From: Octopus vulgaris
Lineage: Eukaryota
NCBI GenBank assembly: GCA_951406725.2
Contig: OX597814.1
Span: 196,602,001 to 196,666,000 of the forward strand
DNA: 64,000 bases
Direction: 5' to 3'
Shown: one piece after another, positions 11,174 to 59,057 of the stretch
Layout of the letters: every line of letters begins with the position of its first letter
Position numbering within the stretch: position 1 is the first letter of the stretch
The notes under the pieces: generated by a model
Told to the model about the DNA's origin: nothing
Databases searched by the model: none
What the model saw: the letters and a program-made list of their open reading frames with translations, nothing else
Made by a program: the position numbers and the translations under genes

Positions 11174-11755
11174 AAGGCGGCGAGCTGCTAGAAACGTTAA
11201 CACGCCGGGCGAAATGCCTAGAGGTATTTCGTCTGCCGCTGCGTTCTGAGTTCAAAATCCGCCGAGGTCGACTTTGCCTTTCATCCTTTCGGGGTCGATT
11301 AAATTAGTACCAGCTAAGCACTGGGGTCGATATAATCGACTTAATTCGTTTGTCTATCCTTGTTTGCCCCTTCTGTGTTTAGCCCCTTGTGGGTAGTAAA
11401 GAAATAGGTATTTTGTCTGTCTTTACGTTCTGAGTTCAAATTCTGCCGAGGTCGATTTTACCTTTCATCCTTTCGGGGTCGAACATTAAGTACAAGTTGA
11501 GTACTGGGGTCGACCTAATTGACTGGCCTCCTCCCCAAATATTTCGGGCCTTGTGCCTAGAGTAGAAAAGAAGGGTCAAAATGCTTAGCGGTATTTCGTC
11601 TGTCTTTTCGTTCTGGGTTCAAATTCCGCCGAGGTCGACTTTGCCTTTCATCCTTTCGGGGTCGATAAATTAAGTACCAGTTACGCACTAGGGTCGGTAT
11701 AATCGACTAGTCCCCTCCCCACAAATATCAGGCCTTGTGCCTTTAGTAGAAGCGA
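11174..11755 (+). mobile_element. SINE family B, head-to-tail trimer
   Basis: One full head followed by two further units restarting at GGTATTT; both tail types are present. Confidence 0.88.
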
Positions 11756-24480: not shown

Positions 24481-25040
24481 AAGGCGGCGAGCTGGAAGAA
24501 ACGTTAGCACGCCGGACGAAATGCTTAGCGGTGAGTTCAAATTCCGCCGAGGTCGACTTTGCCTTTCATCCTTTCGGGGTCGATAAATTAAGTACCAGTT
24601 ACGCACTGGGGTCGATTTAATCGACATAATACCTATGTCTGTCCTTGTTTGTCCCCTCTATGTTTAGCCCCTTGTGGGTAATAAAGAAATAGGTATTTCG
24701 TCTGCCGTTACGTTCTAAGATCAAATTCCGCCGAAGTCGACTTCTCCTTTCATCCTTTCGGGGTCGATAAATTAAGTACCAGTTACGCACTGGAGTCGAT
24801 GTAATCGACTTAATCCCTTTCTCTGTCCTTGTTTGTCCCCTCTGTGTGTAGCCCCTTGTGGGCAGTAAAGAAATAGGTATTTTGTCTGTCTTTACGTTCT
24901 GAGTTCAAACTCCGTCGAGGTCGACTCTGCCTTTCATACTTTCGGGGTCGATAAATAAAGTACCAGTTGCGTACTGGGGTTGATCTAATCGACTGTCCCC
25001 CTTCCCAAATATGTCGGACCTCGTGTCTAAATTAGAATAA
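24481..25040 (+). mobile_element. SINE family B trimer
   Basis: Head plus units rejoined at AAAGAAATA|GGTATTT (about 24692 and 24876). Confidence 0.9.
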
Positions 25041-26339: not shown

Positions 26340-27123
26340 GTAGAAGGCCAGTAATTTCGAGGGAAGCGGCAAGTCAATTACATCGACCTCAGTACTCAAC
26401 TAGTACTTAATTTATCAACCCCGAAAGGATGAAAGGCAAAGTCGACCTCGGCGGAATTTGAAATCAGAGCGTAACGGCGGACGAAATACCCCTAAGCATT
26501 TTGCACAGCGTGCTAACGTTTCTTATTTCTTTATTGCCCACAAGGGGCTACACACAGAGGGAGCAAACAAGGACAGACAAACGGTTTAAGTCGATTATAT
26601 TGACACCAGTGCGTAACTGGTACTTATTTAATCGAGCCCGAAAAGATGAAAGGCAAAATCGACCTCGGCGGAATTTGAACTCAGAACGTAGCAGCAGACG
26701 AAATGCCTATTTCTTTACTACCCGCAAGGGGCTAAGCACAGAGAGGACAGAAAAGGACAGACAAACGGATTAAGTCGATTATATCGATCCCAGTGCGTAA
26801 CTGGTACTTAATTTATCGACCCGAAAGGATGAAAGACAAAGTCGACCTCGGCGGAATTTGAACTCAGAACGTAGCAGCAGATGAAATACCTATTTCCCTA
26901 CTACCCACAAAGGGCTAAACACAGAGGGGACAAACAAGGACAGACAAACGGATTAAGTCGATTATATCGACCCCAGTGCGCAACTGGTACTTATTTAATC
27001 AACCCTGAAGATAGGAAAAAGAAAGTCGATCTCGGCGAAATTTGAACTCAGAACGTAACGGCAGATGAAATACAGCTAAGTACTTCGCCCGGCGTGCTAA
27101 CGTTTCTGCCAGCTCACCGCCTT
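26340..27123 (-). mobile_element. SINE family B tetramer-like array
   Basis: Four CGAAAGGATGAAAGGCAAAGTCGACCTCGGCGG-like units; head (CCAGCTCACCGCCTT) at the right end. Confidence 0.88.
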
Positions 27124-30889: not shown

Positions 30890-31513
30890 CGTGCTAACGT
30901 TTCTGCCAGCTCGCGGCCTTTCGCCACCTTCAATAATATTCAATGTATTCTTTTCTACACAAGGCACAAGGCCAGAAATTTTGGGACGGGTGCCATTCGA
31001 TTAGATCGACTCCAGTATGCAACTGGTACTTAATTTATCGACCCCGAGAGGATGAAAAGCAAAGTCGATCTTGGGAGAATTTGAACTCAGAACCTAAAGA
31101 CAGACGAAATACCTATTTCTTTACAACCCACAAGAGGCTAAACACAGAGAGGACAAACAAGGATAGACAAACAGATTAAGTCGATTATAACGACCCCAGG
31201 GTGTAACTGGTACTTATTTAATCGATCCTGAAAAGATGAAAGGCGGAATTTGAACTCAGAAGGTAGCGGCAGACGAAATAACTATTTCTTTACTGCCTAC
31301 AAGGGGCTAAACATAGTGGGGGCAAACATGGACAGACAAAGGGATTAAGTCGAATATATCGAGACCAGTGCGTAACTGGTACTTATTTAATCGACCCCGA
31401 AAGGATGAAAGGTAAAGTCGACCTCAGGGGAATTTGAACTCAGAACGTAATGGCAGACAAAATACCGCTAAGCATTTCGCCTGGCGTGCTAAAAATTCTA
31501 CCACCTCGCCGTC
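30890..31513 (-). mobile_element. SINE family B trimer plus a head fragment
   Basis: Repeated family B units in reverse orientation. Confidence 0.85.
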
Positions 31514-36844: not shown

Positions 36845-37520
36845 AGGCGGCGAGCTGGCAGAAACATTAGCACGCCGGGCGAAATGCTTAGCAGTATTTC
36901 GTCTGCAGTTACGTTATCAGTTCAAATTCCGCCGAGGTCGACTTTGCCTTTCATCCTTTCGGGGTCGATGAAATAGGTACCAGTTACGCACTGGGGTCGA
37001 TATAATCGACTTAATCCGTTTGTCTGTCCTTGTTTGTCCTCTCTGTGTGTAGCTCCTTGTGGGTAGTAAAGAAATAGGTATTTCGTTCTGAGTTCAAATT
37101 CCGCCGAGGTCTACTTTGCCTTTCATTCATTCGGGGTCGATTAAATAAGTACCAGTTACGCACTGGGGTCGATATAATCGACTTAATCCATTTGTAGGTC
37201 CTTGTTTGTCCTCTCTGTGTTTAGCCCCTTGTGGGTAGTAAAGAAATAGGTATTTCGTCTGCCGCTGCCTTCTGAGTTCAAATTCCGCCGAGATCTACTT
37301 TGCCTTTCATCCTTTCAGCGTCGATTAAATAAGTACCAGTCACGCACTGGGGTCGATATAATCGACTTACTCCGTTTGTCTCTCCTCGTTTGCCCCCTCT
37401 GTGTGTAGCTCCTTGTGGGCAGTAAAGAAATAAGAAACGTTAGCATACCGCGCGAAATGCTTAGCGGTATGTCGTCCGTCCTAACGTTCTGAGTTCAAAT
37501 TTCGCCGAGGTCTACTTCGC
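36845..37520 (+). mobile_element. SINE family B, three units plus a partial fourth
   Basis: Junctions AAAGAAATA|GGTATTTCG at about 37077 and 37249, and AAAGAAATA|AGAAACGTTAG at about 37433. Confidence 0.9.
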
Positions 37521-43648: not shown

Positions 43649-43695
<47 letters not shown>

Positions 43696-43704
43696 TTTAT
43701 ATAT

Positions 43705-44144
43705 AGTAGTTGTATACTGTCAACTTAATGTGATGGTCCCATGAAGGGAATCACACCACTGCTATTTAGCCCTAGGAAGCATCAACGCTTCCTGTCGCCC
43801 TTGACACATTTCCTGTGTTCTTATATTTACAAGGGGAGGCAAGCACCTTCACCCAGCTAAGCCTGAATTCAGAGACTAGTTTCTGAGTCATTGCTCGTCT
43901 TCAGTCTGGTGTAGCATGGCCTGCTATTTGGAGATGCCTGTCTAGCCTTTGTAAACATAAGAACTTTAGTGAAATAAATTCACTGATTACAAAAATAGAA
44001 ATATTACATTTCTAAATAACTCAGGGAGATATAAGCAGTAGTGGTGCGATAGAGTAGTTGTATACTGTCAACTTAATGTAACAGTATACAACTACTCTAT
44101 AGTACCACTACTGTTTATATATCTCTGGGATATTTAGAAATGTA

Positions 44145-44148
<4 letters not shown>
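43705..44148 (-). mobile_element. Hammerhead-containing pLTR-like unit with terminal direct repeat and fold-back end
   Basis: 27-bp direct repeat at 43705-43731 and 44053-44079, internal hammerhead, inverted repeat 44001-44148, (TA)n on both flanks. Confidence 0.65.
43870..43908 (-). ncRNA. Minimal type I hammerhead ribozyme, canonical core
   Basis: CAGA-CUGAAGA-CGAG(CAAUGA)CUCA-GAA-ACUAGU-C-UCUG. Helix I is 4 bp, helix II has a C-A mismatch at its base, helix III is palindromic, site GUC. Confidence 0.75.
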
Positions 44149-44198
<50 letters not shown>

Positions 44199-44332: not shown

Positions 44333-44599
44333 AGTATGGAAGAGAATTAAATTTTGGGAAAATTAAAAGAAAAGTTTTCTAAAAGAATATTTGTATAATA
44401 TTCAAATACAAGGGGCATTTTCCTTGTTTCTGCCTGTCTCTGTCTCTCTTGTTTACTCTTGTGAGTTTATAATATTATGTTATATCATTAACTTGGTGCA
44501 GCTTGTTGTTCAATTGTTGCTGAATTTAAAAAAAAAATTTATATTTACATATAGCATACGAATAAATTGTTTATTCTTTATTTTACAGCTTTGATGTTG

Positions 44600-45545
44600 T
44601 GTGACGAAACCTTGCAAATAGAGCTATTTTACGGTCCCTGTGGATAAAAGAACTGAGTGCAAGAGCAGTGGACGGATATACTGATGTTTCGGAATCCTCA
44701 GGAACTATTAATGAACGTGTGGAACAAAGCTGGTTCAGATATTTCAAGACAGATGACACCAAACTCAAAGACAAACCATGGTCAGAGAAATATTCTTTTG
44801 TGGAAGATGATTGAACAATAGCCCAGCACAAGTACTCGTACGTTGTAGCCAGAACGTGCTCTTTCACAAAGCACCTCCATTTGATACCTCCACGATTCGA
44901 CCTTGTGATCAAATGCTGTAGAGAAACTCCTCATGAAGTGATCAATGACGAGGCTCAACGACGTATGGATATTTGTAAGCAACTTCTTGCAAATTCGCGA
45001 GATACCCGTTTTTGGAGTCGAATGGTACCTGGAAATGAAAAGATGAGCTATTTTCTTAATCCTAATAAGAGAAAGCAATGGATTCGTTCCAGCCAGGCTT
45101 AACAACCTTTTTATCAAACAAGAGCAGTTTGAACAGAAAATTGTGTTCTGTATTTAGCAATTTCAAAGAGGTGTTGCACTCCGACCTTGTCCCACATGTC
45201 CATGCAGTGGATACTAGCCTTTATGCTCAACAACTGCATCGTGCATGCGATGATTTGGAAGCCAGCTATGTGGCAATGATGAATCGAAGCCGTGTTCTCA
45301 TACACCATTAAAATGCTCCAGTACATAGTGCCAAAATGACGAAGTTCAAACCCGAGGAACTTGGAGGTCTGAAGAACTCAACCTCCGTACAATCCAGGAT
45401 TTGCACCATCATATCACCTCCCTTTCTGAGTCATGGATAATTTCCTTCTAGGATGGACTTTCAATAATGTCGACGGGGTTGAAAAGGTTGCAGGGTGTGT
45501 TTTTCTTCTATACCAGCACAATGATATAACCGTAGAATTGAGCTT
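44600..45545 (+). pseudogene. Mariner transposase pseudogene
   Basis: WFRYFKTDDTKLKDKP, ETPHEV (WVPHEL), RMDICKQLL, RMVPGNEK (VTGDEK), RKQW, YAQQL, HH*NAPVH, PPYNP.LAPSYHL-like; multiple frameshifts. Confidence 0.85.
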
Positions 45546-45805
45546 CTGAATTTTAATCGTTTTAATTCTAATAGCCTTAACATGAGTATATGACCCGTAT
45601 TAAGATACACGTAGATCACCTCAGTATTATGTGGTCACAAATCTAATGTCCTTTGTATCTAACATTCCTGACCTGCTTCCAAAATTATCGAAAATATAAA
45701 AATTTCATTACATTAAATATAATTAGTAACTTCATACACATACATATACATACAGAAACACAGGCATATACGTGCGTATGCATGTATATATATATATAAA
45801 TATAT

Positions 45806-46016
45806 TTTTTCTTAATACTAATAAGAGAAAGCAATGGTTTCTTTCCAGCCAGGCTTCACAAACTTTGCATCAAACAAGGGCAGTTTGAACAGAAAGTCGT
45901 GTTCGGTATGTAGAAATTTCGTGGGAGTGTTGCACCCTGAGCTTGTCCCATATGTCCATGCAGTGGATGCTAGCCCTTATGTTCAACAACTGCATCGTGC
46001 GAGTGGTAATTTGGAA
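45806..46016 (+). repeat. Diverged second copy of mariner segment 45050-45260
   Basis: TTTTCTTAAT.CTAATAAGAGAAAGCAATGG..CAACAACTGCATCGTGC aligns along its length. Confidence 0.85.
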
Positions 46017-46625
46017 CAGAGAGAGAGAGAGAGAGAGAAATAGAGAGAGAGAGAGAGAAATAGAGAGAGAGAGAGAGAAATAGAGAGAGAGAGAGAAAGA
46101 AAGAGGCAGATAGATAGACATAAATGTGTATAGGTTATTTCAGAATCTGTATCGTATAACGTAGATAAAAAATTGTTCGTCTTTAGGGTAGACAGAAATA
46201 ATACAGATATTTTTTTTCAAATGCGAAAATGCAAAACATATGTCACCAGCAAAAGTAGGTGAATGCAACGAGACAATTCGCTTTATAAGAAGAAATAAAA
46301 ATGAAGTAATGATGTTGGATCCATCAACAGATAAATTTTTGTTGACTTCGTCTCTTTTTCTCGAACGAGGTTTAGCGACGAATACTGCATGCCCACCACA
46401 TTCACATACACATGGATACATGCATATATACATAAACCAAGAGAGACAGATAGATACTTTTATATATATATATGCATCCACATATATATATATATACATA
46501 CATATATATATATATATACATATATACATATATGTTATAATTATATATATATATATATATACATATATACATATATGTTATAATTATATATATATATATA
46601 TATATACATATATACATATATGTTA

Positions 46626-57150: not shown

Positions 57151-57235
57151 TTATAATAGCTAATATATCAAAAATATATTTGTGATTGAAGTGTACAGAG
57201 GAATTAATTTTTGAGAAATACTATATGTATATTTA

Positions 57236-57627
57236 TTTCTTTATTACCCACACGGAGTAAACATAGAGGGGACAAACAAGGACAGACAAAGGGATTAACT
57301 CGATTACATCGATCCCAGTGCGTAACTTGTATTTATTTAATCGACTCCGAAAGGATGAAAAGGAAAGTCGACCTTGTTGGAATTTGAACTCAGAACCTAA
57401 CGGCAGACGATACCTATTTCTTTACTACCCACAAGGGGCTAAACACAGAGGAGACAAACAAGGACAGACAAACGGATTAAGTCGATTATATCGACCCCAG
57501 TGCGTAACTGGTACTTAATTTATCGACCTCGAAAGGATGAAAGGCAAAGTCGACATCGGCGGAATTTGAACTCAAAACGTAACGGCAGACGAAATACGGC
57601 TACGCATTTCTGCCAGCTCGCCGCCTT
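57236..57627 (-). mobile_element. SINE family B dimer
   Basis: Two units, junction ATACC|TATTTCTTT at about 57415. Confidence 0.9.
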
Positions 57628-58236: not shown

Positions 58237-59057
58237 ACGGGGTGATGCTGAAGAGTTCTTGGCTTTGGGTAAGAGATTATGAAGGGGCATCAGTTAATTA
58301 TGATTTCATTCAATATATTCCCCTCTCAGAGGCGGTGAGCTGGCAGAATCGTTAGCACGCCGAGTGAAATACTTACCGGTATTTCGTCTGCTGTTACGTT
58401 CTGAGTTCAAATTCCGCCGAGGTCGACTTTGCCTTTCATCCTTTCGGGGTCGGTAAATTAAGTATCCGTTACGCATTGGTGTCGATATAATCGACTTAAT
58501 CCGTTTGTCTGTCCTTCTTTGTCCCCTCTGTGTTTAGCCCCCTTGTGGGTAGTAAAGAAATAGGTATTTCGTCTGCCACTACGTTCTGATTTCAAATTCC
58601 GCCGAGGTCGATTTTGCCTTTCATCCTTTTGGGGTCGAGTAAGTAAGTACCAGTTACGCACTGGGGTCGATATAATCGACTTAATCCGTCTGTCTGTCCT
58701 TGTTTGTCTCTTCTGAATTTAGCCCCTTGTGGGTAGTGAAGAAATAAGTATTTCGTCTAACGTTACGTTCTGAGTTCAAATTCCGCTGAAGCCGACTTTT
58801 CCTTTCATCCTTTCGGGGTCGACCAAATAATTACCAGTTAACACACTTAATCCCTTTGTTTCTCCTTGTTTGTCCCCTCTACTTTTAGCCCCCCGTGGGC
58901 AATAAAGAAATGAATATATTCCTCTCTTAGATTTACACACTTATTGCCGTGATCCCTCAGTATTTCTAAGCCCTGTAAAAGAACTCTGAAGGTTGGACCT
59001 CCAGCCAGGCCTTTCGCGAGACCCTTAAAGCCAGGAAATTTCCAGCGCATCCTGTGT
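58237..59057 (-). mobile_element. Mariner-derived MITE interrupted by a SINE B
   Basis: TACGGGGTGATGCTGAAGAGTTCTTGGC and GCCAGGAAATTTCCAGC ends; reverse-complement homolog of 59281-59501. Confidence 0.75.
58331..58910 (+). mobile_element. SINE family B trimer with 19-bp target-site duplication
   Basis: AATATATTCCCCTCTCAGA (58312-58330) and AATATATTCCTCTCTTAGA (58913-58931), 17/19 identical. Confidence 0.9.

Follow-up and report, generated by a model that had tools for sequence, protein, structure and literature searches.

Non-LTR retrozymes, defined by Cervera and de la Pena in 2020 (PMC7229834), have units of 350-390 bp in mussels, where both their circles and their cleavage were shown. Copying of these circles into tandem cDNA by the machinery of Penelope-like elements (PLEs) was proposed there rather than shown, and retrozyme circles have been put forward as templates for PLE reverse transcriptase (RT) since 2014 (PMC4209133, PMC7229834). 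A recent study, mainly of vertebrates, has argued that non-LTR retrozymes derive from PLEs and lack autonomy, and in it 24 of 57 Xenopus retrozyme families matched known elements (Li, Clavereau and Pollet 2026; 10.64898/2026.07.22.740005). PLE insertions themselves include partial tandem arrays, a 5'-truncated copy in inverted orientation and a tail of 30-40 bp (PMC8557442). For one PLE studied in vitro, two internal RT start sites bound the tail, and both target strands are cut and extended, with a dimer predicted (PMC11167929). Penelope generates 8-10-bp duplications, and self-priming was proposed for its head-to-head repeats (PMC3846280); how the tail and these repeats originate is still under study (PMC11167929, PMC3846280).

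The locus considered here, in 64,000 nts of Octopus vulgaris DNA (the window), is one decayed copy of an abundant non-coding hammerhead repeat of about 350 nts. [The words hammerhead, retrozyme and ribozyme do not occur in the main text of the octopus repeat annotation PMC13282606.] The preferred reading, given a probability of about 0.68, is that the repeat is a non-LTR retrozyme inserted in trans by a PLE RT/endonuclease whose template, read from both strands of the target, is a single circular monomer RNA. Like animal non-LTR retrozymes, it has a non-coding unit of 350 nts with 41% GC, one type I hammerhead with a short palindromic stem III, a stable predicted fold and thousands of dispersed and tandem copies, with PLEs in the same genome. 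It also falls within the bounds used for retrozymes (non-coding, 170-400 nts, GC under 45%, head-to-tail tandems).

A preliminary description of the window, made from its letters alone, reported a terminally redundant unit at 43705..44079, bracketed by a 27-bp direct repeat, free of ORFs and lying in (TA)n. The repeat is exact, starts at 43705 and has a spacing of 348 bp, as reported; the limits given for the element were too narrow, since the insertion spans 43701-44149 and includes an inverted arm that had escaped notice (Table 1). Nor was the 27-bp repeat designed as a terminal repeat: on the 3' side it stops at a fixed end of the family, and on the 5' side where the inverted arm joins. The copy is composed of an arm of 1.1 units that finishes at one fixed end (S) and an arm of 85 nts that finishes at a second (T), joined at the first hairpin of the unit. 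The inverted arm, 68-85 nts long, also shows as an inverted-repeat match of 90% within the window (44001-44068 / 44081-44148). The unit is 348 nts long with 40.8% GC. When it is read round three times the longest stop-free frame is 42-43 aa, in line with the absence of an ORF noted earlier, and (TA)n does flank the insertion on both sides.

Table 1. Features of the window copy (positions in the window; S and T are the two fixed 3' ends).
Feature	Position	Strand	Basis
(TA)n microsatellite, left flank, putative target	43650..43700	.	sequence
Long arm: 348-nt unit + 37 nt (385 nt, unit 1 to 37), to short fixed 3' end (S) at ~37	43701..44085	-	family ends
27-bp repeat copy at S end (finish of pass round unit)	43705..43731	-	
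27-bp repeat copy at arm junction	44053..44079	-	
Predicted long rod, hammerhead at tip, limits approximate	43810..43965	-	fold
Type I hammerhead motif	43870..43908	-	sequence and family comparison
Predicted cleavage site, after GUC	43874..43874	-	sequence and hammerhead numbering
Self-complementary hairpin (unit 1-22), head-to-head overlap of both arms	44064..44085	.	L115 overlap 22 nt
Inverted second arm, unit 1-85, to long fixed 3' end (T)	44065..44149	+	
Penelope-type 'tail', stretch from S end to T end	44102..44149	+	tail definition: PMC11167929
(TA)n microsatellite, right flank, putative target	44150..44195	.	sequence

The hammerhead had been called canonical. A minus-strand motif is present (CUGAAGA 43904-43898, GAAA 43883-43880) with its predicted cut after C43874, placed by the established hammerhead numbering, but 'canonical' goes too far. 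Stem I is CAGA/UCUG, stem II has 3 bp (GAG/CUC) and the palindromic stem III only 2 bp, with a C10.1-A11.1 mismatch in place of the usual G-C. Canonical metazoan hammerheads have 6 bp in helix I, 4 bp in helix II and G10.1-C11.1; helix I of the window copy has 4 bp. Across the window's family, termed here family A, the core is intact in 64 of 79 hammerhead regions, as in the window, and not in the other 15. Among the 64, stem I has 6 bp in 35, and position 10.1-11.1 is C-A in 47, U-A in 15 and otherwise in two. Rfam places no hammerhead family on the element at E up to 10, and its matches on the whole window (150 of the 189 listed) are all driven by microsatellites. The unit has a predicted fold of -113.9 kcal/mol (z -6.0), equalled in stability by none of 100 shuffles; the z-score of isolated family A hammerheads is not significant. 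A cross-family consensus fold, from few and related rows, recovers hairpins of local extent in which compensation is seen at 20 of 42 pairs, and does not recover the long rod. No RNA record is listed as carrying the element. Pieces of family A occur in contigs of four runs, which as contigs show neither level, strand nor circle.

Two cuts are needed for monomer excision, so a copy with a single degenerate hammerhead would not release a monomer in cis. Two consecutive units with whole hammerheads are what Li et al. count as 'active'; the window copy has one hammerhead in 1.1 units, which makes it a monomer-type offspring. With that single hammerhead, its shortened stem I and a short palindromic stem III of the sort reported to need a second copy for good cleavage (PMC4209133), it is probably inert and a dead end, and the sources would probably be tandem loci such as L015, whose 2.6 units make it the longest family A array. 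The divergence of the window copy from the column majority, 5.8%, is within the range of 25 aligned family A rows (2.6-6.8%). The copy is ordinary debris of a known class, and the evidence of its family matters more.

A search of the 2.8-Gb genome with the element gave 2735 first-look candidates; 40 of these were scored, and identity to the best copies elsewhere is 83-94%. An exact 22-mer from the repeat has 406 genome matches as against none for its reversed control; together with the number of candidates, this shows that the element is not a chance occurrence. The first 100 of the 406 exact-pattern matches furnished a sample of 86 insertions, the window's own included, after second matches in the same insertion and insertions already collected (L011, L012 and L019) were left out. 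No two of the 42 single-arm copies have any sequence in common next to the element in their 5' flanks. Fixed ends joined to other elements, the finding that the preliminary description had named as fatal to its proposal, are therefore not what the copies display. Instead their 5' ends vary and their arms wrap round the unit, to 2.6 units in family A and 6 in the sister family C described below. A monomer copied slightly more than once and possibly circular, as first suggested, is supported by these variable ends and the wrapping.

Of the 136 arm ends in the sample, 119 are in two narrow windows, 66 at S (unit 28-42) and 53 at T (unit 78-99), about 53 nts apart, and 17 are elsewhere. There are 42 head-to-head pairs in the 86 loci and no tail-to-tail pair. 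In 31 of the 42 both ends can be classified, at least one end being unclassified in the remaining 11, and 28 of the 31 combine one S with one T, where half would be expected (p 2e-6). In 14 of the 28, each arm has at least 10 nts absent from the other. Neither arm can then be a copy of its partner, and separate templating is indicated. It is these two features, an inverted arm and a pair of fixed 3' ends, that link the element to integration of the Penelope type.

This bears on the suggestion that inverted arms arise by fold-back self-priming of cDNA, or of an antisense template, at a palindrome, or else by local DNA duplication. Self-priming was proposed for rotifer Penelope (PMC3846280), and seven of the 42 family A junctions are in register with 14-23-nt overlaps. 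The window copy is one of the seven, and since its short arm is wholly contained in the sequence of the long arm, fold-back is possible for it and for other single copies. As a general route fold-back is excluded: 35 junctions are out of register, half of the S+T pairs have sequence private to each arm, and both outer ends are at the two fixed sites with a duplication flanking them. Overall, an origin of this kind for the inverted arm is highly improbable.

Flank duplications were read from the flanks only and scored at 8 nts or more, with up to 8 element-aligned bases allowed. Duplications of 8-15 nts occur at 10 of the 11 inverted family A copies outside microsatellites, compared to 11 of 812 in the control. 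Less favorable to the preferred reading, that of PLE-mediated insertion from a circle, is their presence in only 2 of 18 single-arm copies outside microsatellites. A TA run is found at 44 of 119 family A ends (174 of 2838 background windows), and a CT run follows 14 of the 119. [At some S ends the terminal CTCT runs into (CT)n and often then (TA)n, for instance in L095, L101, L123 and L125; either the target was primed by microhomology or the microsatellite was born at the junction.] To judge from these flanks, family A appears to have the short target duplication and the AT-rich or (TA)n target of PLE-mobilised elements.

Two sister families extend the comparison. Family B has a unit of 350 nts, 4011 candidates, 65% identity to A over 297 nts, the same two ends and arrays to 3.1 units. 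Family C has a unit of 353 nts and 2222 candidates, is about 60% identical to family A, and is young, judging from top matches that are 99% identical. Its sample comprises 38 of 40 insertions collected, two having been removed because they repeated or duplicated another, and, being made up of the best matches to the full unit, is biased to long, clean and near-identical copies. With that bias, S+T is the combination in all 23 two-armed insertions, arrays reach 6.0 units, and 21 of the 38 insertions have at least two hammerheads in one arm. Nearly all of its 3' ends are in (TA)n and its tail is 43-46 nts. Both sisters have the type I hammerhead motif with stems that differ, that of C being canonical, with the G-C and a 4-bp stem II. 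Families A, B, C and further relatives are colinear and end at matching columns, and across families ~60-65% identical to each other the period of this clan is fixed at 348-356 nts. Copies show the PLE footprint: two fixed 3' ends, S+T head-to-head arms, flank duplications and AT-rich targets.

Some individual loci may be recorded. Family B is represented at L082:811-2058 and L070:886-1362, and in its hammerhead stem II starts from an A-G pair at its base, the palindromic stem III is longer and cleavage is predicted to follow AUA. Family C is at L226:4308-4868 and L254-L293 (e.g. G000:C4:22081771-22084508). Two of its insertions, L258 and L259 (G000:C9:75170040, 75176344), have arms laid out alike at a distance of 6.3 kb, probably through local duplication after insertion. 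Further clan members, ~60-79% identical to A, B or C, are at L002:2953-3345, L210:3506-3826, L197:1-200, L228:775-938 and L322:553-1017. That such diverged members were met by chance in flanks implies that the clan is very abundant.

Elements that could supply the enzyme are present in the same genome. There are intact PLE ORFs with RT and GIY-YIG domains, of 781, 775 and 753-764 aa, the domains of the first two being supported by Pfam, and copies of the three end at two points 40, 39 and 51 nts apart, respectively, in (TA)n. Their linker cysteine motif suggests the Neptune type. Bivalve molluscs, or symbiont assemblies from them, are the source of the named relatives of one of the proteins. 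[Several young PLE families whose ORFs are intact (781, 775, 753-782 and 776 aa) are represented by L061-L065, L214-L218, L319-L333 and L324. In some, another ORF lies upstream of that for RT, and close to the ends of the 781- and 753-aa families there are motifs resembling a hammerhead, with a U3-A8 core.]

Like endonuclease-positive PLEs (PMC8557442, PMC11167929, PMC3846280), the clan has partial tandems, a head-to-head 5'-truncated copy, an optional tail, AT-rich or (TA)n targets and a hammerhead; target duplication in PLEs is 8-10 bp. It differs from them in that there is no ORF for RT plus GIY-YIG in the unit, whose copies wrap round, so that 350 nts are the whole element, and in the length of the tail, ~53 nts in family A (43-46 in C). 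Since the footprint is the same as that of autonomous PLEs, the unit might be just the pLTR of an autonomous PLE as yet unfound, with its copies ordinary 5'-truncated ends. The loci compared came from GIY-YIG and protein searches in each of which the best 120-150 of thousands of candidates were scored, a coverage that leaves room for such an element. In BLAST against the flanks of PLE copies from about nine families, with full ends for four, no pLTR homology of A, B or C was found. The tandem-pLTR alternative of the preliminary description gains no support from this, and the result is also a point against the preferred reading. The BLAST of A, B and C against PLE loci, which in its all-loci form also took in loci from a low-complexity, divergent GIY-YIG-like frame query, gave separate retrozyme insertions only. 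More directly, all 17 arms longer than one unit, of the 136, align continuously round the unit; no flank is common to any two single-arm copies; the unit has no ORF; and its period is constant across families that have otherwise diverged considerably. That the unit is a mere pLTR is accordingly very unlikely. Movement of a retrozyme by PLE machinery is, in contrast, highly probable.

A family B copy at least 1.2 kb upstream of a PLE ORF (L070) was considered as a pLTR and rejected as a separate insertion, since related copies stop where it stops and go no further. Families A, B and C have an ATTTA 35-36 nts beyond their S end, and the 753-764-aa PLE has one at 36 nts, a weak hint noticed afterwards; it is absent at this spacing in family D and in the 781- and 775-aa PLEs.

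What was the RNA that was copied? The 5' ends ignore the ribozyme cut. Fifty of the 55 family A arms that reach it pass beyond, and there is no pile-up of 5' ends there (5 of 55 family A arms; in family C, 2 of 61 ends within 6 nts), which argues against copying of a ribozyme-cut linear monomer. Family C, where the one-template evidence is strongest though it is not the window's family, has 91 passes over the cut; within 5 nts of it they have three substitutions and are free of indels. Ten of its variants are in every pass of an insertion, eight of them across both arms, and four of the ten are private to one insertion among those sampled; 79 others are in a single pass and two are partial. 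Non-majority bases are common to opposite arms in 130 of 530 family A comparisons (112 loci; ~48 expected) and to tandem passes in 49 of 290 (~23 expected). The recurrence of variants in all passes and both arms indicates that each insertion came from one RNA variant, read repeatedly and on both strands, and the many single-pass variants argue against later homogenisation. A ligated circle would most simply account for insertions of one variant each.

The same PLE insertion could nonetheless have had a linear template, either an uncut multimer from tandem loci or a monomer re-entered by jumps, the hammerhead and the circle then being unneeded. Uncut RNA was the main substrate of one PLE in vitro (PMC11167929). 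Tandem loci that could be sources exist, both L015 and the family C insertions with two or more hammerheads per arm, and seamless passage over the cut fits uncut RNA equally well. Yet a new mutation hits one unit of a multimer, and the four private variants are in all passes, so that either a monomer step or an unseen, homogenised source is needed. Further, with variable 5' truncation, linear copying would only shorten arrays. Template jumps would be expected to leave scars, and the lack of any indel at the cut in the 91 passes argues against them. A linear template is, on balance, rather improbable, and from the pattern of variants the clan's insertions likely had a circular one.

The preferred reading, PLE-mediated insertion from a circular monomer, would entail the following. 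A source locus with at least two hammerheads would be transcribed, the paired hammerheads would cut out a monomer, and ligation would close this monomer into a circle. Both strands of an AT-rich target would be nicked, ~8-15 nts apart, by a PLE protein that is probably dimeric. One nick would prime at internal site S and the other at T, ~53 nts away on the same RNA; each cDNA would run a variable length round the circle, and the two would be joined head to head, often by microhomology. A more specific form of this proposal, with a PLE dimer on one ribozyme-made circle, two fixed priming sites, rolling-circle copying both ways, and a still active family C that probably borrows the young 753-764-aa PLE (tail 51 nts) by RNA shape and not by shared sequence, stands at even odds. 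Several observations sit awkwardly with the preferred reading. The family A tail of ~53 nts exceeds the 30-40 bp of the literature (PMC8557442), stem II has C-A or U-A where G-C is usual, 15 of the 79 hammerhead regions are without an intact core, and none of the 136 sampled family A arms has two whole hammerheads (L011 and L012, which both have two, are outside the sample). In addition, ribozyme mutants were without effect on PLE insertion in vitro (PMC11167929), and eight of nine frog retrozyme dimers failed to cleave (10.64898/2026.07.22.740005).

By its sequence the clan likely belongs to the animal non-LTR retrozymes, an already known class, and provides good genomic evidence for the route proposed for them. 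In mussel retrozymes (PMC7229834) circles and cleavage were shown, where here they are predicted, with C-A at the base of stem II; what is resolved here is the anatomy of insertion, with its two fixed ends, S+T arms, flank duplication and one-template signature. The conclusion on the mobilising machinery is the same as that of Li et al. (10.64898/2026.07.22.740005). Their basis was co-occurrence and pLTR homology, the latter not found here among the PLE loci compared; the basis here is the integration footprint. They favor local amplification after insertion of a PLE end, whereas the copies here are independent insertions. No one-template signature was found in the literature searched, most subscription journals being outside its scope. 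An existing catalogue may list the family by a different name, since Repbase, Dfam and the supplements of 10.64898/2026.07.22.740005 and PMC13282606 were outside the comparison. Direct genomic predictions follow from the strictness of S+T pairing, from arms that do not overlap and from variants shared by every pass, and the coexistence of the young 353-nt family with intact PLE ORFs in one genome makes the questions of the template, the tail and the head-to-head repeats testable in vitro.

Two other features of the window may be mentioned. The broken frames at 44583-46043, in at least two pieces, resemble what is presumably a mariner-type transposase. There are also seven partial-tandem arrays of a related 169-185-nt repeat (11407-11751, 24537-24994, 26537-27073, 31077-31412, 36912-37432, 57234-57592 and 58379-58840), which share the habit of 2-3 units and could have arisen by a similar circular route.
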